A stretch of DNA of 8,790 bases from a virus (Duplodnaviria; Heunggongvirae; Uroviricota; Caudoviricetes): positions 1 to 8,790 of IMG/VR virus record IMGVR_UViG_2703718806_000011, one strand, 5' to 3'. Shown here in pieces: positions 1-8,790 of the stretch. Under the pieces are notes generated by a model. The model was not told the origin of the DNA, did not search any database, and saw only the letters and a list, made by a program, of their open reading frames with translations. The translations under genes and the position numbers were made by a program. How positions within the stretch are numbered: position 1 is the first letter of the stretch; each line of letters starts with the position of its first letter.

Positions 1-114
1 AACACGCGCATAATTTTCGGCTGTCATGCTGTCCGGCTGCGTGGCCTGTTCGTCAGCCTGCTGGCTGATTCCGGCGACGCGGCGGATTAATCCCAGTATT
101 TCGGCTTCTGTCAT
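1..114 (-). CDS. Hypothetical protein, N-terminal 38 codons only (MTEAEILGLIRRVAGISQQADEQATQPDSMTAENYARV...); runs off the window start
   Basis: ATG at 114-112 with a G-rich stretch (GGGGG) 5 nt upstream; open frame to position 1. Too short in-window to appear in the ORF track. Sits downstream of the capsid gene, so possibly another head-module gene (inference). Confidence 0.35.
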   Translation of the reverse strand, partial: MTEAEILGLIRRVAGISQQADEQATQPDSMTAENYARV

Positions 115-255
115 TGTGCCCCCATCGCGCTGGTGAAGAAAACAAGCTCAGATTTTTTGTAAAGAATCTGTCACGCTAAAAGATGTCGAACAAAAATTAA
201 CCACAATCATCATCTTTTTTGCATCAACAACATTAAAAACAACAGGTTACACACA

Positions 256-350
256 TGATGATGATGACGATAAAATCACAAAAATGCGCTTTTTTCCGCG
301 CCGCCCGCCCCGTGTTCAGGCCCACCCCACCAGGAGGACCCGCAAAAAAG
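256..350. repeat. Copy 1 of a ~95-bp direct repeat (core 281-350, about 93% identical to 2818-2888), with a (GAT)n-like trinucleotide stretch at one end
   Basis: Aligned by eye against 2793-2888. Shared core AAAATGCGCyTTTTTCCGCGCC...GCCCCGTGTTCAGGCCC(A/C)CCCCACCAGGAGGACCCGCAAAAAAG. Confidence 0.6.
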
Positions 351-365
351 GCGGCTGGTGCCGCC
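341..365 (-). terminator. Rho-independent terminator just after the capsid gene stop
   Basis: GC stem GGCGGC-tggt-GCCGCC (350-365), followed on the minus strand by TTTTTTG (349-343); lies 6 nt beyond the stop at 372. Confidence 0.6.
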
Positions 366-371
366 TTGTTG

Positions 372-2261
372 TCATAGTGAATCGGTACCACCTGATTTGA
401 CCATACCGCGATAATCCAGAGCTGCCACACCTGCATCAATACGGACTTTCCAGGCCACGCCGTCAACGATAAAACCTTCCTGCTGTTCAAGGTAAGGTTC
501 GTCATTACCATCAAGATAAGCCACCTCGATTGTGTCCGTTCCCTGTGCGGAAAGCATGTACCATTGTTTTTCGCTGATATCATCAAGGCGGGGATCGACG
601 ATGATATCAAGTAGCTTGTGATACGGGTTAAAGATCCCGCTGTTTTTATCAGCCCCGAAAGGTGCGGTTGAGTTAATCATCTGCAACGCGCGATCTTCCA
701 GTGCTGCCGGAACTAAAAGGAATTTAGGCGCAATATTCAGCACTTCGCCATTTTTGTCCTTCTGTGTGCGCATCAGGTGACGTGCTGCACTAAGTCCCGG
801 TGTTGTCAGTCCTGCTTCAATCAGGTTGCTGTGTTTTTTGTCAAACAGCGTTATTCCGTCAGAAAGTTTTACGTTGCCTGTAAGCACCAGATTAACCAGA
901 TTTCCCACCGTTCTTGATGCTGCACGGCCCATAGCCATTGGCACCGTTGATAACTGATCAAGGTCATCATTGATTATCGCCTGGCGGGTAATGCTGAAAA
1001 TATTCCCGTAAGTAGCCAGCGCGATGGGTTCACCGCGATCGCTGGTGGTGATGTATTTATATTCTGCCCCTTCCGGCACTTTGTTTAACGTTGAGAAGCC
1101 ATTCATACCAACGCGGCGGGCTTCCCGGAAGTTTGAAAGGGAACCTTTTTTCGTCCACTGGCGGAATGTTTCGCCACTGTGCTCCCAGCCTGCAAGCACT
1201 GATTTTTCAGCGCCACCAGCAAGGATATCGGTAAAATCGCTGCTGCTGTGGGTGAATGCCGCGTTTACTATCTGCGAGCGTGTGCCGTAGCTGCCCGTGC
1301 TTATACCACGATGGGTTAATGATGCCTGTGCCATATCGAAAAGGCTCATCATGGCGTAAGGATTACCGCGTTCGGCCCGTTCGTGACCAAGACGCGCATT
1401 AAGCCCCTGACGCATGGCATCGCCGGTTATATTGCCGTTATCCGTGTACGCGTAGTAAAGATTTGCGGGGGTGGTTTTGTTTGTTGGCGTTGATTCTTTA
1501 CCCATAGCGAGTAAAAGGCGTTCGCGTGCATTCTCAACGCTACATTCTGAATCCGCAAGACAACTTATAGCCAGGTCGTTATATCTTCCGTTGAAGGTGC
1601 CAAACAATTCACGGATTCCGTTAAGTCGTTCCTGTTCGCCACTGCCAGTTTTCTGGCTGATCATGCTTTTAATTTTTTCCGGCATATTTGAAAAATCTCC
1701 GATTCGTTTTGATTCAATTCGGGCCATTGCTGTAATCGCGGGTATAACCTCATCTGCGAAGCCGTTAGCCTTACACTCATTGCCATCCATCCAGGTTTCC
1801 GCCTCCATCATGGAGGTGATCTCCTGTTTGCTCCTGCCCGTTCTTCCGGCATAGGTTTCTGCCATCGTGTCGCCCAGCTTGTCCATCAGATCAGCAAAGC
1901 GGCGAACGTCGCCCGACACTCCGGCAGTAACACCACGGGGGGCATGTATCATCATCATCGCGTTTTCAGGCATAACGATGTGATCTCCACACATGGCAAT
2001 AAACGACGCCATAGAAGCCGCCATGCCTTCAATGTGTACGATTTTTTTTGCCGGATGATTTTTCAGGGCGTTATAGATAGCCAGCCCTTCAAAGATGTCG
2101 CCACCAGGTGAATGAATGCTCAGATGGATTTCAGACGCATTACCACACGCGTTGATCTCGTCAGTAAGTGCCGATGCTTTTACACCGTACCCGCCGATCT
2201 CGTCATAAATGCGCACATAGACAACATCTGCCATAGCCTTAATGGAAAACCATGTTTTCAT
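372..2261 (-). CDS. Prohead serine protease (ClpP family) fused to HK97-fold major capsid protein, 629 aa
   Basis: N-terminal ~170 aa aligns with ClpP around the catalytic residues: IHSPGGD, GMAASMASFIA (compare ClpP GQAASMGAFLL, catalytic Ser) and MMIHAPRG (compare ClpP VMIHQPLGG, catalytic His). The C-terminal ~400 aa has the length and composition of an HK97-family capsid protein. RBS TAGGAG 8 nt upstream of the ATG at 2261. Confidence 0.85.
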   Translation of the reverse strand: MKTWFSIKAMADVVYVRIYDEIGGYGVKASALTDEINACGNASEIHLSIHSPGGDIFEGLAIYNALKNHPAKKIVHIEGMAASMASFIAMCGDHIVMPENAMMMIHAPRGVTAGVSGDVRRFADLMDKLGDTMAETYAGRTGRSKQEITSMMEAETWMDGNECKANGFADEVIPAITAMARIESKRIGDFSNMPEKIKSMISQKTGSGEQERLNGIRELFGTFNGRYNDLAISCLADSECSVENARERLLLAMGKESTPTNKTTPANLYYAYTDNGNITGDAMRQGLNARLGHERAERGNPYAMMSLFDMAQASLTHRGISTGSYGTRSQIVNAAFTHSSSDFTDILAGGAEKSVLAGWEHSGETFRQWTKKGSLSNFREARRVGMNGFSTLNKVPEGAEYKYITTSDRGEPIALATYGNIFSITRQAIINDDLDQLSTVPMAMGRAASRTVGNLVNLVLTGNVKLSDGITLFDKKHSNLIEAGLTTPGLSAARHLMRTQKDKNGEVLNIAPKFLLVPAALEDRALQMINSTAPFGADKNSGIFNPYHKLLDIIVDPRLDDISEKQWYMLSAQGTDTIEVAYLDGNDEPYLEQQEGFIVDGVAWKVRIDAGVAALDYRGMVKSGGTDSL

Positions 2262-2452
2262 AGCCAGGCTCCTAACGTTGCCTGGTACCAGTATTCAACC
2301 GCGCTGCGTGTGATTTGTCCTTTCGTGGGCACTGGCATACCCGGGTGATTATCTTTGATGAACTGCTGATAGCGTTCGATCTTCTCCATAGTTCCGGCGT
2401 CTATGTGCACAGTGGCACTTTTATCCGGCTTTCTGGTGTTGTTCTCTGGCAT
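2258..2452 (-). CDS. Hypothetical small protein, 64 aa from the favoured start at 2452 (ORF track start 2485 gives 75 aa); translationally coupled to the capsid gene
   Basis: GGAGG lies 7 nt upstream of the ATG at 2452, whereas the ATG at 2485 has no Shine-Dalgarno. The stop overlaps the capsid start (ATGA). Predicted strand-helix-helix pattern (ATVHIDAGTMEKIERYQQFI...) suggests a small DNA-binding or assembly factor (inference). Confidence 0.5.
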   Translation of the reverse strand: MPENNTRKPDKSATVHIDAGTMEKIERYQQFIKDNHPGMPVPTKGQITRSAVEYWYQATLGAWL

Positions 2453-2647
2453 AAATCCGCCTCCGTTTTGATTAACGGGCATCATTATTGATCGATAAAA
2501 GTAATAGATAAATCATTTTCTACCTGAAAATCAGATTATGTTTTTTCTGATTATTCTCAGAAAGGCAAAGTTATTGACGCATTTTTGCCATTGAAGCAGT
2601 ATTAAGACTCGTCATCCTGGCGATAAAAACTCCTTTGTCGTGTAAAA

Positions 2648-2683
2648 GCGCCTCCGGTAACAGCAATCGGGGGCGCTTTTTTT
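2648..2683. terminator. Intrinsic terminator, strongest in the plus orientation and probably bidirectional
   Basis: Stem GCGCCTCCG (2648-2656) / CGGGGGCGC (2668-2676) with one G-U pair, followed by TTTTTTT (2677-2683) on the plus strand and preceded by AAAA, which gives UUUU on the minus strand. Confidence 0.5.
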
Positions 2684-2792
2684 GCGCCTGTTTTTTTGTA
2701 AATGCTTTCGGGAACGCTCCAGTGATGAACAAAAAACAACCTGATTCGACACTAAAATTTTTTATTCCTCAATATATCAATAACTTATAGTG

Positions 2793-2888
2793 GTGGTGAT
2801 GGTGCCATAAAAATCAAAAAATGCGCCTTTTTCCGCGCCCCTCCGCCCCGTGTTCAGGCCCCCCCCACCAGGAGGACCCGCAAAAAAG
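2793..2888. repeat. Copy 2 of the ~95-bp direct repeat (pairs with 256-350); carries a C8 tract at 2859-2866
   Basis: Aligned by eye with 256-350. The two copies differ by one indel and a few substitutions, so plus-strand reading frames through them are not conserved, arguing the element is non-coding. Confidence 0.6.
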
Positions 2889-2904
2889 CCGGATTGCTCC
2901 GGCT
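2880..2904 (-). terminator. Rho-independent terminator after the SSB-like gene
   Basis: Stem AGCCGGA-ttgc-TCCGGCT (2887-2904) followed on the minus strand by a T-run (complement of 2881-2886); lies 16 nt beyond the stop at 2920. Confidence 0.6.
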
Positions 2905-2919
2905 TCTGTCACTCGTTGC

Positions 2920-3177
2920 TTAAAACGGTATGTTATCCCCGTACGGATCATCGTTACCCGCCACGCTCACCAGTTCGCCTTTGTGGTGTTTTGCCAGTGC
3001 GTCGGCCTGTCTGCCAAACGCCAGGACGGATAACCACATCGTCGCCGTTCCGTCATCGGCCTGGCTGCACGGCAGGGGGATAGCCATACCCGCCATCGCC
3101 ATTTGTGTACCCTTGCTGGTGGTCTTTAACTGTGGGTCAGCCACCAGCCGCCCGTAAGCGGCTATCTGTGCTGTCAT
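2920..3177 (-). CDS. Truncated SSB-like OB-fold protein, 85 aa, ending in an SSB-type acidic C-terminal tip (...DDPYGDNIPF)
   Basis: The N-terminal part resembles the start of E. coli SSB (IAAYGRLVADPQLK vs VILVGNLGQDPEVR; WLSVLAFGRQADALAKHHKGELVSV vs [26 protein letters not shown]), and the last residues DNIPF match the SSB tip DDDIPF. Start overlaps the upstream gene stop (ATGA). Confidence 0.6.
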   Translation of the reverse strand: MTAQIAAYGRLVADPQLKTTSKGTQMAMAGMAIPLPCSQADDGTATMWLSVLAFGRQADALAKHHKGELVSVAGNDDPYGDNIPF

Positions 3178-3443
3178 GATTCCACCTCTCCGGTTTTAAT
3201 GTTGATGGTTGTTACCTGTTCCGCTTCGGCAATCTCCCGTTCTGTCAGCGTGGCAAAGTTTGCCGCCGCTGTGGTCATGAATGCGCTTATCAGTTCGGGA
3301 TGTTCCTTCGCGTATCCTTCCCCCGCGTGGCGGTCTATTACCCTGATTGCTACCTTTAAGGCGTGCTCTGTCATGTCTAACGCTTTATATTTTGGCTCTG
3401 TTCTGTCTCTGCGCATTTTGGTTATCTCCTCACTCATGCTCAC
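3174..3443 (-). CDS. Hypothetical protein, 89 aa (GTG start at 3443; alternative ATG at 3437)
   Basis: Plausible composition; GAGG lies 7 nt upstream of the GTG, inside an ori iteron; coupled to the downstream SSB-like gene by a 4-nt overlap. Confidence 0.5.
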   Translation of the reverse strand: MSMSEEITKMRRDRTEPKYKALDMTEHALKVAIRVIDRHAGEGYAKEHPELISAFMTTAAANFATLTEREIAEAEQVTTINIKTGEVES

Positions 3444-3630
3444 TTTTGCGCCTCACTTTTTAAAGCGTCTCGCTTCGTCTCACTTGATATTTTTGATGTT
3501 TTTATGTGCATGTTTCATAAGGATTTTTTACTCCTCACTTTTTGGGGTATATATACGTTGAAAAGTGAGGAGTTCAGGGGGTTTTTCGTGCAATTCCTCA
3601 TTGTCCTCACTTTTGCGCCTCACTTTTTAC
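3429..3630. repeat. Putative origin of replication: iterons of consensus CCTCACTTTT around an AT-rich core
   Basis: The 23-bp unit CTCACTTTTGCGCCTCACTTTTT occurs at 3439-3461 and 3606-3628. A perfect 12-bp inverted repeat CTCCTCACTTTT (3531-3542) / AAAAGTGAGGAG (3561-3572) flanks a TATATATA spacer. Partial copies at 3429-3435, 3477-3486 and 3596-3603. AT-rich stretch 3481-3530. Lies immediately 3' of the replication gene. Confidence 0.55.
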
Positions 3631-5036
3631 AGAGGGCCTACATCATCACCGTCGATATAAATAACCCCGTCTTTTTCCAGCTTGCGTAGCCAGCGGCTGA
3701 AGTTTTTCATTTCGTACCCCAGCTTTTTCATATCGTCACGTAACAGCGGGATCGTGCACTTGTCGCCGTGCTGTGTGCGTGACCGGATACATCCCCATAG
3801 CGCAGCATGATTCTCCGTCTTGTTGCCAGCCTCTTCGATGCGCTCCAGTTCAACGGGAGGACGCGGCTTATCCACCACCACCAGCGACGTGATTAACTCC
3901 CCGTCAGCGTCGGTAAAAAGCTCCACCACCCGCAAATCATAGGCAGCCTCTTTGAGTTCCTCCGCGTCCTTCATTTTGGTGCATGAGATAACCAGCGCTT
4001 CGCTTCCTGCGTCCTCCCTGCGTATCCGGTATTCAGCGTCCAGTGATGCACGAAATGCACTGGAACCACGCGCCCCCTTTGTTTCATCCTTGCCGGAATG
4101 GTGAACCACCAGCACCGTAGCCCCTGTGCGCCGTTTAAGCTCGTCACAACCACGGATAAATGCCCCCATGTCGCGGGAGTCATTTTCATCATTGCCGCCA
4201 AAGCAACGCGCCAGCGTGTCCAGAATAATCATGCGAACAGGTTTACCCGTTTCCCTCTCCACCTGACTGGCAGCAATAACCAGTTCATCAACATCAAGCG
4301 GGACAGCCGGAAAGATGGGACGGTTTACCAGATACAGATTTTTCACCTGCTCACCGTGCACAACCTCCCAGGCTTTTACACGACGCGGAACGCCGATACC
4401 GCCTTCACCAACCACATAGAGAACAGCGCCATGCGCCACCCTGCGGCCTCCCCACTGGCGGCCCGTGGAAACGTGACACGCCCACGATCCGGCAAGGAAT
4501 GATTTATAGGAACCGCTCGCCCCGTATATGCTGCAAAGCGACGATGCCGGAATAATCCCCTTTACCACGTAATCAAGCTGTGTGTCGTATCCGGTAGATC
4601 CAACGCTCATCGGTAGCTTGGTTTTTCGCTGGGGGATTTTTTTCATGACCAGGCTTTCCCCGCGTTCCCATGCCTCCCTAAGCCGTGGAAGCTGGTCGCT
4701 CCATTCCTCCAGCAATTCGAAATTTTCAGAAAGTAGCCGCGCCTCCTGGACTCCGGCGATCGCCAGTTTCGTGGCGATGGTTAACAGCTGCGGCTCTTCA
4801 ATATTTCCGGCGCGTATCACCGTCGCCCTGTATCGCCCATCATCAACAATCTGGAGGTTATCCAGTTCGCTTAACTGATAACGCCCCAGATAAACGGGAG
4901 GGACTGGATCGCCTGCTTTTTTGGCCTGTGCAATGATGTAATGCTCTGCGAATGAGTGAGCATCAATACCCGCAAAAATAATCGCATCGGTGTATTTATC
5001 TTTCGGTAATCGTTTTACGTTCGGTGCCAGTTTCAT
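3627..5036 (-). CDS. Replication protein with a RepA/DnaB-like (RecA-fold) ATPase domain, 469 aa; primase/helicase-type satellite replication initiator
   Basis: P-loop-like IYGASGSYKSF, Walker B-like RMIILD, and HHSGKD, as in RepA-like helicase domains (from memory, unverified). AGGGG lies 6 nt upstream of the ATG at 5036. Start overlaps the upstream gene stop (ATGA). Confidence 0.8.
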   Translation of the reverse strand: MKLAPNVKRLPKDKYTDAIIFAGIDAHSFAEHYIIAQAKKAGDPVPPVYLGRYQLSELDNLQIVDDGRYRATVIRAGNIEEPQLLTIATKLAIAGVQEARLLSENFELLEEWSDQLPRLREAWERGESLVMKKIPQRKTKLPMSVGSTGYDTQLDYVVKGIIPASSLCSIYGASGSYKSFLAGSWACHVSTGRQWGGRRVAHGAVLYVVGEGGIGVPRRVKAWEVVHGEQVKNLYLVNRPIFPAVPLDVDELVIAASQVERETGKPVRMIILDTLARCFGGNDENDSRDMGAFIRGCDELKRRTGATVLVVHHSGKDETKGARGSSAFRASLDAEYRIRREDAGSEALVISCTKMKDAEELKEAAYDLRVVELFTDADGELITSLVVVDKPRPPVELERIEEAGNKTENHAALWGCIRSRTQHGDKCTIPLLRDDMKKLGYEMKNFSRWLRKLEKDGVIYIDGDDVGPL

Positions 5037-5332
5037 TTTTTACCCCTGAATCCGTTAATCATGGTTTTCAGCTTCTGGATGTTTGCCCGTGCCCTGGCGT
5101 TGCTGGTGGGCACGTTATGCGGCGCGGTCTGTACCAGAGAAAAATCACGCCGGAACTGATAAACAGGCATCACGCAATCATATTCGTAACCTTCACGGCG
5201 GTAAGTTACGCACCGTCCCGCCACGCCCTTAATCATTACCGTGCCGCCGTACTGGTCGCGGTAAATATCACCGCGCGTAAATTTAGGGTGAGTGTTGCCA
5301 CTGGCAGTTAAGCCAGAATATTTAAGTTTCAT
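5033..5332 (-). CDS. Hypothetical protein, 99 aa; resembles small conserved proteins found beside replication genes in P4-like prophages
   Basis: ORF-track protein with GDIYRDQYGGTVMIKGVAGRCVTYRREGYEYDCV, probably beta-rich. GGAG upstream of the ATG at 5332. Last gene of the small-gene operon before rep. Confidence 0.6.
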   Translation of the reverse strand: MKLKYSGLTASGNTHPKFTRGDIYRDQYGGTVMIKGVAGRCVTYRREGYEYDCVMPVYQFRRDFSLVQTAPHNVPTSNARARANIQKLKTMINGFRGKK

Positions 5333-5337
5333 TATTT

Positions 5338-5571
5338 TTATTCTCCGGTGTGCTGTTCGTTATATCTGTCGTGCAATTGGTCTATTTCTTGTAGTTCCAT
5401 TATTACAGGCTCAAGAAGCGTTATTAATGCCGTGACAATTCTTGATTTTTGTTTGTCGCGTTCATTGTCGCCAAGTGTTTCAAGCCATATGCGCAATATT
5501 TCCAGCATGTTTTCACTGTGAGAAAGTGCAATAAATGCGCGGTCTATTGTTTCAAGGTAAATATCACGCAT
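5338..5571 (-). CDS. Hypothetical small protein, 77 aa, predicted helical
   Basis: AGGGGG then TAAT before the ATG at 5571; the upstream gene stop TAA is 1 nt before the start. Confidence 0.6.
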   Translation of the reverse strand: MRDIYLETIDRAFIALSHSENMLEILRIWLETLGDNERDKQKSRIVTALITLLEPVIMELQEIDQLHDRYNEQHTGE

Positions 5572-5572
5572 A

Positions 5573-5794
5573 TTACCCCCTGCCAGACATTTTTCTTAAA
5601 TCAGATTCAGCAATATATTCCGCATAATCGGCAGTAATATTCAGTACGTCTATTCCAGTTGATTTATATTCTTTCGTGCCAAGTAAGAAAAATGCCGCTC
5701 TTATCAGTTCGGATATTGACGAAAGCGCATCACCTGCATCATCAGGCGCACCATCAAATTCCTTTTTCAGGGAATTAAAACGATCATCACGCAT
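5573..5794 (-). CDS. Hypothetical small acidic protein, 73 aa from the favoured start at 5794 (ORF track start 5842 gives 89 aa)
   Basis: The internal ATG at 5794 is preceded by the G8 tract that also encodes the C-terminal glycines of the upstream gene, and overlaps that gene's stop (ATGCGTGA). The longer N-terminal extension is hydrophobic and has no Shine-Dalgarno. Confidence 0.5.
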   Translation of the reverse strand: MRDDRFNSLKKEFDGAPDDAGDALSSISELIRAAFFLLGTKEYKSTGIDVLNITADYAEYIAESDLRKMSGRG

Positions 5795-6008
5795 AACCCC
5801 CCCCATTTTCACAATCAGCAACAAGAATATTTTTAGCGTCATTCAGCGACCGCGTGGCGGTGTATCGGATACATTCCAGGGCGAACGATGTGTATTCTTC
5901 CCGTTCTTCCTTTCGTGCAAGCTCTGCTGTGCATTCAATATCAATAAGCGCGTGCATCAGCGTAGTGAGTGCGGCGGCGGCTGCGTCCGGTGTGGTTTTA
6001 TTGCACAT
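5787..6008 (-). CDS. Hypothetical small acidic protein, 73 aa from the favoured start at 6008 (ORF track start 6062 gives 91 aa)
   Basis: GGAGGGG lies about 4 nt upstream of the ATG at 6008; the ATG at 6062 has no Shine-Dalgarno. C-terminus ...ENGGGYA. Confidence 0.5.
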   Translation of the reverse strand: MCNKTTPDAAAAALTTLMHALIDIECTAELARKEEREEYTSFALECIRYTATRSLNDAKNILVADCENGGGYA

Positions 6009-6228
6009 GTACCCCTCCGCATTTTTTTTCGTTAGAAATAAGCGTTCTTCTTTCCTGTTCATCGCTCAGGAATACGCAGACCTCACCGCTAAGGCGTTTA
6101 AGTAAGCCGATGATTGCCCCTGATTCGCTGTCGGTCATCATGCCAGGGTAATCCTCTGCCAGTGCGCAAATAACTTCGATTTGGTGGGCGCGTTCTGCTG
6201 CCTGTTGTAGTGTGATTTCCTGGCTCAT
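5998..6228 (-). CDS. Hypothetical small protein, 76 aa from the favoured start at 6228 (ORF track start 6285 gives 95 aa)
   Basis: AGGAGG lies 8 nt upstream of the ATG at 6228, which overlaps the upstream gene stop (ATGA). The longer form would begin inside the upstream gene with a Cys-rich, implausible N-terminus. Confidence 0.55.
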   Translation of the reverse strand: MSQEITLQQAAERAHQIEVICALAEDYPGMMTDSESGAIIGLLKRLSGEVCVFLSDEQERRTLISNEKKCGGVHVQ

Positions 6229-6419
6229 AAGCCTACCTCCTGACGAATACGGGCGGCAAATACAGCAACACAACCGGACGGGCAACGGCTACGCGCTTCG
6301 CGTTCCGTCCAGGCGGTTACGTGGATGATTTGAGATTCTCCGGCACTCAGTGCCAGAAAACGCCACATAAAGGCAGTTTGTGTGTGTACAAGGTGTGGTA
6401 TATGATTTACGGCAACCAT
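6225..6419 (-). CDS. Small protein, 64 aa, first gene of the early operon; possibly Icd-like (host cell-division inhibitor family common in P4-like prophages)
   Basis: Strong RBS GAGGAG 6 nt upstream of the ATG at 6419. The Icd-like assignment is from memory of the family pattern (aromatic-R-F-L-A-L core) and is unverified. Confidence 0.55.
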   Translation of the reverse strand: MVAVNHIPHLVHTQTAFMWRFLALSAGESQIIHVTAWTEREARSRCPSGCVAVFAARIRQEVGL

Positions 6420-6450
6420 AACGGCTCCTCGTTTACGTTGTTGGTTAGAA

Positions 6451-6491
6451 GCCCTGCGAGTGGTAACGACACTTGCGGGGCTTTGCTTTTT
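6451..6491 (+). terminator. Terminator-like hairpin plus U-tract on the plus strand; role unclear
   Basis: GCCCTGCGAGTG (6451-6462), loop GTAACGA, CACTTGCGGGGC (6470-6481), then TTTGCTTTTT. Two G-U pairs are allowed only in the plus-strand RNA; in the minus-strand RNA they become C-A mismatches. Confidence 0.3.
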
Positions 6492-6508
6492 ACTGTACCT
6501 ACTGATAT

Positions 6509-6552
6509 TGTACGTACGTAACGGAAATGATAATAGGAGTTACGTACGTACA
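6509..6552. promoter_or_regulatory. Palindromic operator: perfect 14-bp inverted repeat TGTACGTACGTAAC / GTTACGTACGTACA, arms separated by 16 bp
   Basis: Arms at 6509-6522 and 6539-6552. Each arm contains the self-complementary 10-mer TACGTACGTA, with copies 30 bp centre to centre. Overlaps both the early promoter and the RHH translation start. Confidence 0.6.
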
Positions 6553-6558
6553 TGTCAA
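6530..6558 (-). promoter_or_regulatory. Near-consensus sigma70 promoter for the minus-strand early operon
   Basis: On the minus strand: -35 TTGACA (6558-6553), 17-bp spacer, -10 TATTAT (6535-6530). Predicted transcription start near 6523, about 100 nt upstream of the first operon gene at 6419. Confidence 0.55.
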
Positions 6559-6743
6559 CATTAAAGCGCGATAAATCGCCACGCGGTGAGGGATGGTCTC
6601 CAACCTTCCAAATCAGAATCAGTAAAGAGCTACGCCAACAAGTAAATGAAGCTGCAACTTCTGACGGTCTAACCCTTGGTAACTGGTTTAAAGAATTAGC
6701 CAGGGCAGAACTAAAGCGGCGCGGCATAGAACCCAAAGGGTAA
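6552..6743 (+). CDS. Ribbon-helix-helix (Arc/CopG-like) DNA-binding protein, 63 aa; candidate repressor of the early operon
   Basis: Strand-helix-helix pattern FQIRISKELRQQVNEAATSDGLTLGNWFKELARAEL. The only convincing plus-strand gene, divergent from the early operon. AGGAG lies 12 nt upstream of the ATG, which sits inside the operator and the spacer of the opposing promoter. Confidence 0.6.
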   Translation: MSTLKRDKSPRGEGWSPTFQIRISKELRQQVNEAATSDGLTLGNWFKELARAELKRRGIEPKG

Positions 6744-6834
6744 TTACATTGCCCACCAGCCTGATAGCGGCTATCATTCCCGTGCTTATGTTTGGGATCA
6801 CATACACATAAGGCGCAGCAGGTTAATTGTTCAG

Positions 6835-6867
6835 AAAGGCGGCTCCATATCGGGGCCGCTTTTTTTA
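6835..6867 (+). terminator. Rho-independent terminator downstream of the RHH gene; may also stop convergent alpA transcription
   Basis: AGGCGGC ... GCCGC stem followed by TTTTTTT (6861-6867). Confidence 0.5.
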
Positions 6868-7007
6868 TGCCTGAAAAACCCCAATTTTGTTGTTTTTCAG
6901 TTTCACCAGGGCGAACGAATCCCCGCCCACGTTCGGGCGCATATTCAATCTTCATGGTTATATCTCTGTATTAGTGGATGTGTGGCGACTGTGTGCCGCC
7001 AGTCTTT

Positions 7008-7196
7008 TTAGTGAACTGCCTTGCAGCTATCCTTCCAGGCCAAAACCTCAGATAAAGACCAGCCAACAGAACGCCCGCCAAGTTTACGACGTGATGGGAA
7101 TTGTCCGGCCTTTTCCAGGCGGTAGCGGCATGAGCGGCTAAGGCCTGTTAGCTTTTCGCATTCTTTTTCACGTATAAACCGATCAGTGCTTAACAC
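7008..7196 (-). CDS. alpA: AlpA-family (excisionase-like, MerR-type) phage transcriptional regulator, 62 aa, GTG start
   Basis: ...EKLTGLSRSCRYRLEKAGQFPSRRKLGGRSVGWSLSEVLAWK matches the AlpA helix-turn-helix pattern. AAGGGGG lies about 4 nt upstream of the GTG at 7196. Confidence 0.8.
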   Translation of the reverse strand: MLSTDRFIREKECEKLTGLSRSCRYRLEKAGQFPSRRKLGGRSVGWSLSEVLAWKDSCKAVH

Positions 7197-7247
7197 TATT
7201 GCCCCCTTTCGTTTCTTAAAGAGTCATCAGGTGTCTTATTGTGTCGT

Positions 7248-7276
7248 ATTGTTCCCGCTAGTGTGGTGAATGGCAA
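7248..7276 (-). promoter_or_regulatory. Candidate sigma70 promoter for alpA
   Basis: On the minus strand: -35 TTGCCA (7276-7271), 17-bp spacer, -10 AACAAT (7253-7248). TATTGT-containing direct repeats at 7231-7255 overlap the -10 and start region. Confidence 0.3.
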
Positions 7277-7345
7277 ATGTTGATGTCGTATGGTTTACAG
7301 AAAGAGGAATAATCAGGATAAAATCATTTAAATTCATGTTAATAC

Positions 7346-7378
7346 AAAGGCATAAAATCTTGTTTTATGCCTTTTTTC
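7346..7378. terminator. Hairpin terminator between int and alpA, probably bidirectional
   Basis: GGCATAAAA-tcttg-TTTTATGCC (7349-7371), followed by TTTTTT on the plus strand and by TTTGTATT on the minus strand. Confidence 0.45.
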
Positions 7379-7468
7379 GCACGCTTTAACGCGTAATTCG
7401 CTAATGTATAAAAAACCAGTTAACCAATAAAAATCAGTAACTTATAAATCTGTATTCTTTTTGGCCTC

Positions 7469-7518
7469 TTGTTCGTGATTGTGTCACGTTGTTGCACATT
7501 GTTTCACGTTGTATCTGT
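7469..7518. repeat. Five direct repeats with exact 10-bp phasing (TTGTnnCACG-like) just 3' of int
   Basis: TTGT at 7469, 7479, 7489, 7499 and 7509; units TTGTTCGTGA, TTGTGTCACG, TTGTTGCACA, TTGTTTCACG, TTGTATCTGT. Confidence 0.4.
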
Positions 7519-7560
7519 GCACTTATCCAGTATGTGCATACTGAAAAAACACGAAAAAAA

Positions 7561-8790
7561 TTATTTTATTCTGGTTACTGGTAGCGTGGTTACGTTTTCA
7601 TGTGCTCCCGCCAGTATCCCTAACCGCTCCGTCCACATATCCAGCGCATCACGTTTCGCATCGAGATAACGGGAGTGGTTATAGACTCGTTGCATCCCTG
7701 GCATCTGATGACCTGTAAGCTGCTCCACGACGTGAGGATCCACGCCCAAATCATTCAGCATCGTTGTAAAGGTGCGCCGGATGTCATGCAATGACCATTG
7801 AGGGTGTTTTAGCCTCCTGTGCGCTAATCTGCCGTACTGCGATACGCTGGCCTCCTGTTTCACTTCCCCCAGTAATAAGCCCGTGTGCCTGTTCTGGTCC
7901 ACCAGCCGCGTGACGAACGGCAGGATCGCTTCCGGTATGGGCCGGAATATTGCAACCTTCGTTTTGCTGTGCTCCTTCGGAACGGTCCATAGCATTTCGG
8001 TAAAATCCCACTCGCTGATCTCCGATAACCTCAGTTCTACCGTCCTGGCTCCGAAGACAATCAGGAGGCGGATTAACGCGACGTAGTAAGGAGAAAATAT
8101 TTTTTTATCCAGCGCCTGCAATAACTCGCCCAGTTCTTTGGTGCTTAAGACACGTTCGCTTATATCCGGTTTTTTCCCAACGTCCGCCACGTTCAGATCG
8201 TCCAGAACGTTGCTGATTGCATAGCGCCGCCTACGGCAGAATTTAAGCGCCTGTTTGCATGTCTGTAGCAAGAATCCGGCAGTAACAGGTGTTCGCTTTG
8301 CCACCTGATCAAAACAGGCCAGCCAGTGCCGTAGCTCGCATTTATCCAGCGGCATAGCACCAATTTTGATGATTATGTTTTTATTGATCCGGCTTTTCAG
8401 TGATTCGTAATCTGTGCGCTTTTCCTTTGCGTACGACTCAAGCCAGTAGGTGAGCGCATCGCCAACCGTTGCAGGCTTTAACGCTTCCTGCATGGTGTAA
8501 TTCAGTTCATAGCGTGGATTTTTCCCCTCAGCCAGCCATGCGCGACACTGTGCGGCTTTTTCCCTGGCTGCTTTCAGGCTCAGATCGGGATAATTTCCCA
8601 GCTTAACGCGTTCAGGTTGTGTCCCTCTTCCCGTTCCGGCCCTGTATGTGAAATACCAGGTTAAAAGGCCGCTGGTTGAATGCCTGACGCTCAGGTTTCC
8701 ACCGTCATTAAGAAAGGCTGTTTTTTGGGCGGGTGTGCCGTTGATTTTCCTTAGCTGTGTGTCACTCAGTTTGTTAAGTGCTCTGCTCAT
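7561..8790 (-). CDS. int: P4-type tyrosine integrase (site-specific recombinase), 409 aa
   Basis: N-terminal arm-binding-type region (LSDTQLRKINGTPAQKTAFLNDGGNLSV...), and C-terminal catalytic motifs HDIRRT (HxxR) and GHQ...VYNHSRY (catalytic Tyr). The ATG is the last three bases of the window (8788-8790). Confidence 0.9.
   Translation of the reverse strand: MSRALNKLSDTQLRKINGTPAQKTAFLNDGGNLSVRHSTSGLLTWYFTYRAGTGRGTQPERVKLGNYPDLSLKAAREKAAQCRAWLAEGKNPRYELNYTMQEALKPATVGDALTYWLESYAKEKRTDYESLKSRINKNIIIKIGAMPLDKCELRHWLACFDQVAKRTPVTAGFLLQTCKQALKFCRRRRYAISNVLDDLNVADVGKKPDISERVLSTKELGELLQALDKKIFSPYYVALIRLLIVFGARTVELRLSEISEWDFTEMLWTVPKEHSKTKVAIFRPIPEAILPFVTRLVDQNRHTGLLLGEVKQEASVSQYGRLAHRRLKHPQWSLHDIRRTFTTMLNDLGVDPHVVEQLTGHQMPGMQRVYNHSRYLDAKRDALDMWTERLGILAGAHENVTTLPVTRIK

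Follow-up and report, generated by a model that had tools for sequence, protein, structure and literature searches.

We analysed a stretch of viral DNA of 8,790 nucleotides (nt), hereafter the window, which comprises positions 1 to 8,790 of IMG/VR record IMGVR_UViG_2703718806_000011 (Caudoviricetes) and in which a first-pass annotation had flagged a terminator-like hairpin with a following U-tract at positions 6451-6491. We consider it likely that this hairpin is the 3' stem-loop and terminator of a cis-antisense small RNA (sRNA) of about 80 nt, similar to sar of phage P22, which represses the icd-led early operon of a satellite of the phage-inducible chromosomal island (PICI) type, beside the gene of an Arc-like repressor. 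The predicted RNA, as-icd, is encoded on the plus strand at 6412-6491 and comprises two stem-loops, SL1 and SL2, and a U tail, SL2 being the flagged hairpin. What our analysis adds to the earlier annotation is a second hairpin: the two make up a compact sRNA gene that resembles P22 sar. The data presented below establish that the hairpin exists, that the plus-strand RNA fold of both stem-loops is under selection, and that the boundary of the unit coincides with the T tract; we infer the promoter, the termination efficiency, the translational repression and the physiological role of the antisense RNA.

Fold and strand of the flagged hairpin

SL2 (6448-6484, plus strand) has 15 base pairs (bp), 8 of them G-C, with a 7-nt loop and three G.U pairs, and would form the intrinsic-terminator stem of the antisense RNA. 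The U tract GCUUUUU (6485-6491) continues the UUU of the stem base (6482-6484) and lies at the boundary between conserved sequence and a variable regulator module. As expected of an intrinsic terminator, the plus strand has a G+C-rich stem closed by a short loop, with a U-rich tract directly 3' of it, and in a consensus scan SL2, with its tail GCTTTTTACT, ranks first among the terminator-like sites of the window. These sites number 16, compared to 10.7 +/- 3.2 in shuffled sequences; the class is not enriched, and our case therefore stands on SL2 as a single site. In the likeness of its G+C-rich 15-bp stem, 7-nt loop and U-rich tail, SL2 matches a canonical Rho-independent terminator, from which it differs in having an interrupted U tract (UUUGCUUUUU) that is poorer still in most relatives, and in ending an 80-nt RNA rather than a protein-coding gene.

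The first-pass annotation held that the hairpin and its U-tract are best formed in plus-strand RNA, and folding of 6440-6500 bears this out: the plus-strand RNA reaches -27.8 kcal/mol (z -4.53, equalled by 0 of 200 shuffles) versus -16.3 kcal/mol for the minus-strand RNA (z -2.30, equalled by 8 of 200). The two G.U pairs said to become C.A mismatches on the minus strand are found in the core stem 6451-6481 as U6455.G6477 and G6458.U6474, the full stem adds G6448.U6484 as a third, and all three turn into C.A mismatches in the minus-strand transcript. Equally, it had been stated that no plus-strand gene lies upstream, and the sole plus-strand open reading frame (ORF) there (6321-6521, 66 aa, GTG start) has no family match.

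A protein reading across the hairpin was rejected, given that neither this 66-aa ORF nor a 182-aa ORF on the minus strand matches any family, and that the hairpin measures 35, 36 or 37 nt among relatives, so that any reading frame across it is broken. The 182-aa ORF (6407-6955) crosses the Arc-like regulator gene, the promoter region and the hairpin. Similar ORFs in relatives (L004 1546-2289, L006 1674-2267 and L007 1277-1750) carry labels from the NCBI Prokaryotic Genome Annotation Pipeline (PGAP) that range from 'hypothetical protein' through partial 'Icd-like' to over-long Icd-like, and ORF calls that cross the RNA unit are probably spurious. Rfam searches of the whole window, and a focused scan of 251 nt, gave no match at the hairpin, the best scores being at chance level (rnk leader, 20.5 bits, E 0.22; R1162 antisense RNA, E 2.2).

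Conservation of pairing among relatives

The unit is present in about 15-20% of complete E. coli genomes, including Sp7 of enterohaemorrhagic E. coli (EHEC) O157 and the model island of CFT073. A 161-nt region around the hairpin matches 781 of 5426 complete E. coli genomes and a 601-nt region matches 1078 of the same 5426, and most matches stop at query position 91/92, which corresponds to window position 6490/6491 and is the end of the T tract. For comparative work we used 31 distinct hairpins from a pattern scan of IMG/VR, a separate IMG/VR scan anchored on the Icd-like protein alone, and several E. coli loci. The hairpin lies 28-35 nt before the icd-like start codon in all 79 protein-anchored IMG/VR loci.

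Pairing is retained in 95.7% of the 437 cells of the alignment of the 31 hairpin variants, a value reached by none of 500 shuffles, and sliding the pairing partner lowers the paired fraction to 35-58%. Two pairs of SL2 vary on both sides among the 31 variants (C-G in 16 and A-U in 14; G-C in 24 and C-G in 7), and several others switch between C and U opposite an invariant G. In the plus sense the alignment holds 62 G.U cells and no A.C cell, whereas the minus strand is only 81.5% paired, with 62 C.A cells and no wobble, an asymmetry that argues for selection on plus-strand RNA. Moreover, when variants were folded singly, 26 of 26 were more stable as plus-strand RNA (mean -24.0 versus -17.6 kcal/mol), with the same bias in each of at least five highly dissimilar inner stems. 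Since the inner stems are wholly different between classes, it is pairing and not sequence that is conserved.

Searching the phage collection with the DNA of 6200-6560 gave no match. A scan of genome contigs with the Icd-like protein gave one locus only, in E. albertii (L002, about 2300-2500; 62% identity). The hairpin upstream of that gene (CCACCGCC...GGCGGTGG) was rejected as a member of this RNA family, being different, G+C-rich and without a U tract; it may be a same-strand leader RNA. In some islands the sRNA unit is found twice in tandem (L005 1547/2294; L101 797/1535; L107 11045/11791; L110; L175 382/1130). Each unit comes with a regulator module of its own and with a remnant or variant of the gene 5' end, a pattern that would fit a stacking of regulatory cassettes through recombination at the conserved unit.

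SL1 and the start of the icd-like gene

The leftward early operon opens with a gene (6225-6419, minus strand) for a 64-aa Icd-like protein, which matches NCBIfam NF033153 (phage_ICD_like) over residues 17-60 with an E of 1e-17; PGAP labels the product in relatives 'host cell division inhibitor Icd-like protein'. Its Shine-Dalgarno (SD) sequence GAGGAG is the complement of 6425-6430 and its ATG that of 6417-6419. Both fall within SL1 (6414-6446, plus strand), which appears when 6412-6492 is folded and is present in all upstream types, that is, types of sequence that differ in the N-terminus of the gene and in leader length. The two stem-loops together give -35.5 kcal/mol (z -4.9). In SL1, AACCAUAACG pairs with CGUUG-UUGGUU; the anti-start codon CAU (6417-6419) is part of the 5' arm, and the 12-nt loop (6424-6435) includes the anti-SD sequence CUCCUC (6425-6430), which is complementary to the icd SD. 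A near-invariant UGGUU(A) directly before SL2 is the 3' arm of SL1.

SL1 is formed in every upstream type, each with an inner stem of its own, and in all 31 distinct variants its plus-strand fold is the more stable one (mean -11.2 versus -5.1 kcal/mol). The same holds for the whole unit in 86 of 86 cases, with means of -35.8 and -23.5 kcal/mol. In the outer SL1 helix, RNAalifold reports pairs that alternate between G.U (58) and A-U (28), C-G (43) and U.G (41), and A-U (76) and G.U (10), and these changes are transitions that keep pairing in plus-strand RNA only. Because the MAFFT alignment shifts the inner SL1 helix by one column between types, that helix was assessed by folding each sequence on both strands in place of a formal pair count. 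A covariance model of our own, R1, scores the window RNA at 79.6 bits.

Candidate promoter and 3' end

A candidate promoter for the antisense RNA, P_as, has a -10 hexamer TATGAT at 6401-6406 (plus strand), inside codons 5-7 of the icd-like gene and about 7 nt before SL1, and a putative weak -35 hexamer TTGTGT (6378-6383, plus strand; 3 of 6 consensus positions) 17 bp further upstream. A TANNNT hexamer (TATGAT, TATGCT, TATAAT or TACGAT) is present 41-44 nt upstream of SL2 in 78 of 79 distinct upstream sequences, and SL1 begins 7-8 nt after it in every upstream type. Positions T1, A2 and T6 of the hexamer are invariant while the amino acid residues that it overlaps vary (N/Q/E, then H/Y/R, then I/T/S/N). 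In addition, the geometry TTGTGT-17-TATGMT is common to upstream types I, III and V, and type II has TGGTATGAT or TGGTATAAT, with an extended -10 of the TGn kind.

At the 3' end, the T frequency over 25 distinct downstream modules is 0.84-0.92 at positions +9 to +11 after GGGG and falls to a background of 0.32 from +13. The window itself has a class A tail and a d'Aubenton-Carafa-type terminator score of +16.5; weak-tail variants among its relatives are exemplified by GGGGCUUCGUCGUUUC.

An RNA of the predicted extent in EHEC Sakai

On the minus strand, element Sp7 of EHEC Sakai carries a unit about 97% identical to that of the window, which lies antisense to ECs_1577 and upstream of it. RNase E crosslinking, ligation and sequencing of hybrids (CLASH) has been performed in this strain by Waters et al. 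(2017), and their Table EV2 includes a row, 158815-2_16, that links asECs1576 (1597315-1597288) with asECs1577 (1597367-1597312), both classed as asmRNA (PMC5286369). The same row gives a count_total of 196 unique hybrids, a dG of -26.8, a count_last_clustering of 2, denoting interactions that overlap in the replicate dataset, and an Hfq overlap of 1 for each half, denoting sites from Hfq crosslinking and analysis of cDNA (CRAC), together with the read AATGACACTTGCGGGGCT|AGAAGCCCTGCGAGTGGT (PMC5286369). As tabulated, this read is the 3' arm of the stem ligated to the 5' arm, both halves being in the plus-strand sense of the window, and a chimera that joins the base of the 3' arm to that of the 5' arm implies that the stem is formed in vivo in the Sakai copy.

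The two tabulated clusters overlap in the loop and have a joint span of 80 nt. We calibrated the old and new Sakai coordinates through EcOnc54, an sRNA of prophage Sp6 that is considered again below (offset about 140), and used the same RNA, whose reads in the table are in the sar sense, as a check of the strand convention. On this calibration the 80-nt span, at NC_002695.2 1,597,428-1,597,507 on the minus strand, maps to window 6412-6491 within about 3 nt and matches the predicted RNA; likewise, the 3' limit of the cluster (1597288 in old coordinates) falls in the U tract within about 3 nt, as seen in the Sakai copy and from cluster limits as opposed to 3'-end mapping. By the evidence of this table row, an antisense RNA of the predicted extent, folded as predicted and bound by RNase E and Hfq, exists in vivo in the near-identical Sp7 copy.

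The first-pass annotation had also proposed that the hairpin may terminate an antisense transcript arising within the early operon, or else be a leader structure abutting the promoter of the ribbon-helix-helix gene, and the former suggestion gains support from conservation on the plus strand only, from the -10-like hexamer and SL1 upstream, and from the tabulated Sakai hybrids. Our searches on Icd-like antisense RNA and on EcCICFT073, the CFT073 island, found no published description of the antisense RNA, and a full-text search with the hairpin sequences returned unrelated human primer matches only. A strong signal appears to lie unremarked in a published CLASH table, and annotation pipelines put doubtful protein calls over the RNA. 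The sRNA Esr41/EcOnc14 was considered as the identity of the Sp7 RNA and rejected; it lies in SpLE1, not in Sp7.

The control region at the head of the early operon

P_early (6530-6558, minus strand), the promoter from which the leftward operon would be transcribed, has TTGACA at 6558-6553 and TATTAT at 6535-6530 with a 17-bp spacer, and with 11 of 12 consensus positions is the best sigma-70 match of the window. Its transcript is predicted to start near 6523 and would have a leader of roughly 104 nt. Since SL2 lies between P_early (6558..6530) and the ATG at 6419, the hairpin is located in the leader of the minus-strand early operon, just as the first-pass annotation had placed it. The divergent gene at 6552-6743 (plus strand) encodes an Arc-like ribbon-helix-helix regulator of 63 aa, the presumed repressor of P_early, which matches PHROG 228 ('Arc-like repressor') with an E of 1.9e-4; matches to Pfam HicB and NCBIfam YlcI/YnfO are weak and below cutoff, and comparison with P22 Arc (PDB 1b28) gives an E of 0.92 over nearly the full length of Arc. 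A perfect 14-nt inverted repeat (6509-6522 / 6539-6552) brackets the -10 hexamer of P_early and is presumably the operator of this repressor. Other regulator modules have repeats of their own at the equivalent place, and relatives whose modules are otherwise unrelated repeatedly have TTGAC(A/G) on the minus strand at the far module end. The head of the early operon is, in short, a compact control region in which a presumed repressor and operator adjoin a conserved, structured RNA running antisense to the translation start of the gene for a putative inhibitor of division.

Some relatives have a different gene at this ATG (L001 7987-8544, L210 1960-2520), which has the same N-terminus, MVAVNH..., and is labelled partial 'ash family protein', which is followed by a separate Icd-like gene. 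By comparison, the icd-like gene of the window looks like the product of a deletion of about 360 bp that fused an ash-type N-terminus to the Icd-like domain.

Weighing the proposal against other readings

Several points weigh against the assignment of as-icd as a terminated antisense sRNA. The variant sequences are related and do not constitute independent trials, so the shuffle statistics overstate independence, and the strict DNA pattern behind the first collection fixed some positions, an effect that is partly offset by the protein-anchored sample. P_as in the window reaches only 8 of 12 consensus positions and is missed by a consensus scan at 9 of 12, which is why we infer this promoter and call it a candidate; moreover, its -10 hexamer overlaps a mostly conserved His codon, so that constraint on the protein and on the promoter are not fully separable. 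The terminator score is positive in only about 41% of the distinct family variants (median -4.6), suggesting that termination may be leaky or partial in many relatives. The CLASH evidence comes from a relative and not from the window, its fragments prove neither a primary 5' end nor a termination event, and the mapping between old and new Sakai coordinates is good only to about +/-3 nt. Finally, the list of 63 Hfq-bound EcOnc candidates obtained by Hfq-CRAC (Tree et al. 2014) includes no Sp7 sRNA.

In a first rival reading, the plus-strand transcript would be mainly the 5' leader of the mRNA for the Arc-like regulator, with the hairpin as an attenuator that meters read-through into 6552-6743 and the short RNA as a by-product. 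The regulator is indeed downstream on the same strand, 60 nt past the T tract, and there is no convincing separate plus-strand promoter in 6492-6551, where the best candidate by eye (TTTGCT-16-GATATT) reaches 7 of 12 positions and the promoter scan lists none; the imperfect U tracts of many relatives could also leak. Nevertheless, homology ends exactly after the T tract, and at least 25 unrelated regulator modules are found next to this RNA unit, at distances that vary, which implies that the unit travels with the 5' end of icd and not with the regulator. The regulator of CFT073, which has promoter-like sequences of its own, begins over 120 nt further downstream, and the Sakai CLASH cluster ends in the U tract. 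An attenuator of this kind therefore appears improbable to us.

We attach the same low probability to a second possibility, in which the RNA is mainly a trans-acting, Hfq-dependent sRNA that pairs with mRNAs of the host or of a helper phage and its overlap with icd is incidental. In its favour, each half of the hybrid overlaps an Hfq-CRAC site, and RNase E binds the RNA, which resembles Hfq-binding sRNAs in its terminator hairpin and U tail; the near-invariant UGGUUAGA before SL2 could serve as a seed. The UGGUUA in this segment is, however, explained as the 3' arm of SL1, the accessible part of Table EV2 gives no intermolecular partner for asECs1577, and the RNA is absent from the candidates of Tree et al. 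mentioned above. Placement of the RNA across the first gene's SD and AUG is kept in 79 of 79 protein-anchored loci. A role in trans may still be an extra function of what we take to be primarily an antisense RNA.

Still less probable is that the inverted repeat acts within the icd mRNA, either as a stabilising or processing hairpin or as the source of a processed immunity RNA such as c4 of P1, CI of P4 or CA of N15. The hairpin does lie within the 5' untranslated region (UTR) of the leftward operon, P1, N15 and P4 cut an RNA regulator from the leader upstream of icd or early genes, and the minus-strand fold, at -16.3 kcal/mol and z -2.3, retains weak stability. This reading is opposed by the 62 C.A mismatches, with no G.U pair, in the minus sense, by the lower minus-strand stability of SL1 and SL2 in all variants, and by transitions in the 5' arm that keep pairing in plus-strand RNA only. 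In addition, the Rfam models C4, isrK and c4-a1b1 find no match here despite a positive P4 control, and the RNA recovered in vivo is, on the tabulated Sakai evidence, the antisense one.

Finally, we give almost no credence to a DNA-level element (a protein-binding site, cruciform or recombination junction without RNA function), since its position exactly at a mosaic boundary and the tandem units with remnants of the icd 5' end, which look as if recombined there, are outweighed by conserved pairing within inner stems that differ wholly from class to class, by a strand-biased wobble pattern that duplex DNA cannot explain, and by the RNA recorded in vivo, in the CLASH table, with its stem formed.

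Gene content of the island

Besides the control region, the window encodes an integrase (7561-8790, minus strand), AlpA (7008-7196, minus strand), a RepA/AAA_25-like helicase (3627-5036) that represents the replication module, a DUF4222 protein, a single-stranded DNA-binding protein (SSB), and a fusion of ClpP protease and major capsid protein in a single 629-aa ORF (372-2261, minus strand). An integrase, AlpA, a primase/helicase replication module and capsid genes of its own, all in one island of about 9-15 kb, make up the gene set by which Gram-negative and capsid-forming PICIs have been defined (PMC6092414), and on this gene content the window is a PICI-type phage satellite. Its relatives include the CFT073 island, known from published work as EcCICFT073, and Sakai Sp7, in which the head and terminase module is complete. 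The hairpin is not mentioned in PMC6092414.

In contrast to the fused ORF of the window, HK97-type protease and capsid are encoded by two genes in relatives such as L001 and the Sakai element Sp7, indicating that capsid modules differ among islands with a common regulatory RNA. The SSB-like ORF of the window (2920-3177, minus strand) has only 85 aa, which correspond to the OB-fold part, whereas L001 has a 136-aa SSB at this place; the short form may reflect a frameshift or truncation. A second terminator-like hairpin on the plus strand (2644-2689; GGGCGCTTTTTTTGCGCC followed by GTTTTTTT) lies between minus-strand ORFs 2258-2485 and 2920-3177 and has a weak match to ctRNA_p42d (23 bits, E 0.24); possible roles are as the end of a further antisense transcript or as part of an origin region. 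An A/U-rich hairpin on the minus strand between the integrase gene and alpA (7329-7410; AAAAGGCAUAAAA...UUUUAUGCCUUU), at which BSnc120 scores at chance level (E 0.08), is probably the terminator after the integrase gene.

Proposed mechanism and significance

The steps proposed here are drawn throughout from the anatomy of the locus and from analogy. Antisense transcription would start about 7 nt after TATGAT, a hexamer within the first codons of the icd-like gene, and the RNA would fold into SL1 and then SL2 before terminating at the U tract near 6491. Between 6491 and 6412, a stretch that takes in the 5' UTR, ribosome-binding site (RBS) and first two codons of the message, the P_early mRNA would complement the sRNA perfectly. 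Pairing would probably be initiated through contacts between loops, and would keep ribosomes from binding and expose the duplex to cleavage by RNase III or RNase E. Translational coupling or polarity could then lower expression of the downstream replication genes. The terminator would halt antisense polymerases about 40 nt short of the P_early operator and promoter. The operon's own transcript would escape termination, given that the hairpin folds only weakly in minus-strand RNA and is followed by no U tract there. The Arc-like repressor on its inverted repeat and the sRNA might together constitute a two-layer lock that keeps the Icd-like protein, which is putatively toxic, and the replication genes off in the quiescent island and sets a threshold for induction. 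The convergent promoters, with start sites about 110 bp apart, may add transcriptional interference.

AlpA is the known activator of Gram-negative PICIs. To our knowledge, no repressor circuit has been defined for these islands, and their silence until a helper phage arrives is only partly understood. Their global repressor has been reported as unclear (PMC6092414). A more far-reaching idea, which we regard as unlikely, is that the Arc-like repressor and the sar-like RNA jointly form the quiescence ('immunity') switch of Gram-negative PICIs, that the SL1 and SL2 classes recombined with at least 25 repressor-operator modules represent specificity groups, and that the RNA could interfere with or sense the immI (sar/ant) circuit of a helper prophage in trans. 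If this were so, specificity groups would let several satellites coexist in one cell, and because the SL2 stem is common to phage sar RNAs, a satellite could act on or sense the sar/ant circuit of P22-like or lambdoid helper prophages.

Comparison with known antisense systems

Like SymR, an RNA of about 77 nt opposite the 5' UTR and start of symE, a gene with a harmful product, as-icd lies opposite the corresponding part of its target gene; in its case the toxicity of the Icd-like product is putative, and the gene is the first of a long operon and not a solitary toxin gene. The symR model (RF01809; gathering score 61) gives sub-threshold scores at the same locus and strand in two relatives (25.9 and 24.7 bits, E 0.69 and 1.3), which are at chance level, and no match in the window.

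The RNAs c4 (P1/P7), CI (P4) and CA (N15) are processed from leaders upstream of icd-type or early genes and keep these off in quiescence. They share with as-icd a position just upstream of icd-type or early anti-immunity or replication genes in temperate elements. They differ in being cut from a leader on the same strand and in acting on repeated target sites, whereas as-icd is selected on the opposite strand. A leader RNA of the P4 CI/c4 type was rejected for the window, the structure being on the wrong strand and Rfam C4 (RF01695 clan), isrK and c4-a1b1 giving no match in the window while the P4 control scored 74.9, 60.8 and 44.1 bits, respectively. The old 'cI ORF' of P4 was likewise discarded as an Icd-like protein; BLASTP shows no similarity.

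The closest resemblance is to sar of P22 (RF00262), for which repression of ant translation was reportedly described by Liao, Wu, Susskind and McClure in 1987. This RNA acts by pairing with the RBS of ant (summarised in PMC2629481). Both sar and as-icd are short (about 68-80 nt) and run counter to an operon, from a promoter, a candidate in our case, that is located where the target gene begins. Two stem-loops are present in each, with a CUCC-type anti-SD sequence in the loop of SL1 and SL2 as a 3' terminator-like hairpin, and the outer stem of SL2 is nearly the same in sequence (GAAGCCCUG...GGGGCUU(C/U)). Both are encoded opposite the target RBS, the promoter of as-icd being placed by its candidate -10 in codons 5-7, and both adjoin a small Arc-type ribbon-helix-helix repressor. 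The target of as-icd, unlike that of sar, is an Icd-like gene (in some relatives an 'ash family' gene), the first of the early and replication operon of a satellite, and not the antirepressor gene ant, and its host is a PICI-type satellite in place of a P22-like phage. Furthermore, SL1 of as-icd is longer and closes over the start codon, and in elements of type I, which include the window, the RNA covers the AUG as well.

The Rfam sar model (gathering score 43 bits) has no match at E<=10 in window 6350-6600, nor at E<=5 in 13 relatives. It does identify EcOnc54 of Sakai Sp6 (L209 7263-7329, minus strand; NC_002695.2, about 1577262-1577328), our positive control, with 66.7 bits. EcOnc54 is an Hfq-bound sRNA opposite the 5' end of the antirepressor gene ECs_1557, and the name sar is not used for it in the publications that we consulted. 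Its layout runs from a -10 hexamer through three bases and CAT to SL1, which has a loop of the CUCC type, and on to SL2 (GAAGCCCUG...GGGGCUUC) and a weak U tail. The geometry of -10, three bases, CAT and SL1 is alike in the type II relatives of as-icd, and the two-hairpin layout and the outer stem GAAGCCCUG/GGGGCUUC are shared with as-icd. Conversely, our model R1 finds EcOnc54 at full length and on the correct strand with 22.8 bits (E 0.0035, from a rough calibration) compared to 17.6 bits on the opposite strand, and much of this score comes from the palindromic stem. Given the negative result with the Rfam model and the different target, as-icd would work like sar without being a member by the Rfam criterion, and the as-icd family may be a distant relative of sar. 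Antisense control of the sar type is a classical mechanism, and what as-icd adds to it is a new family in a new setting rather than a new principle.

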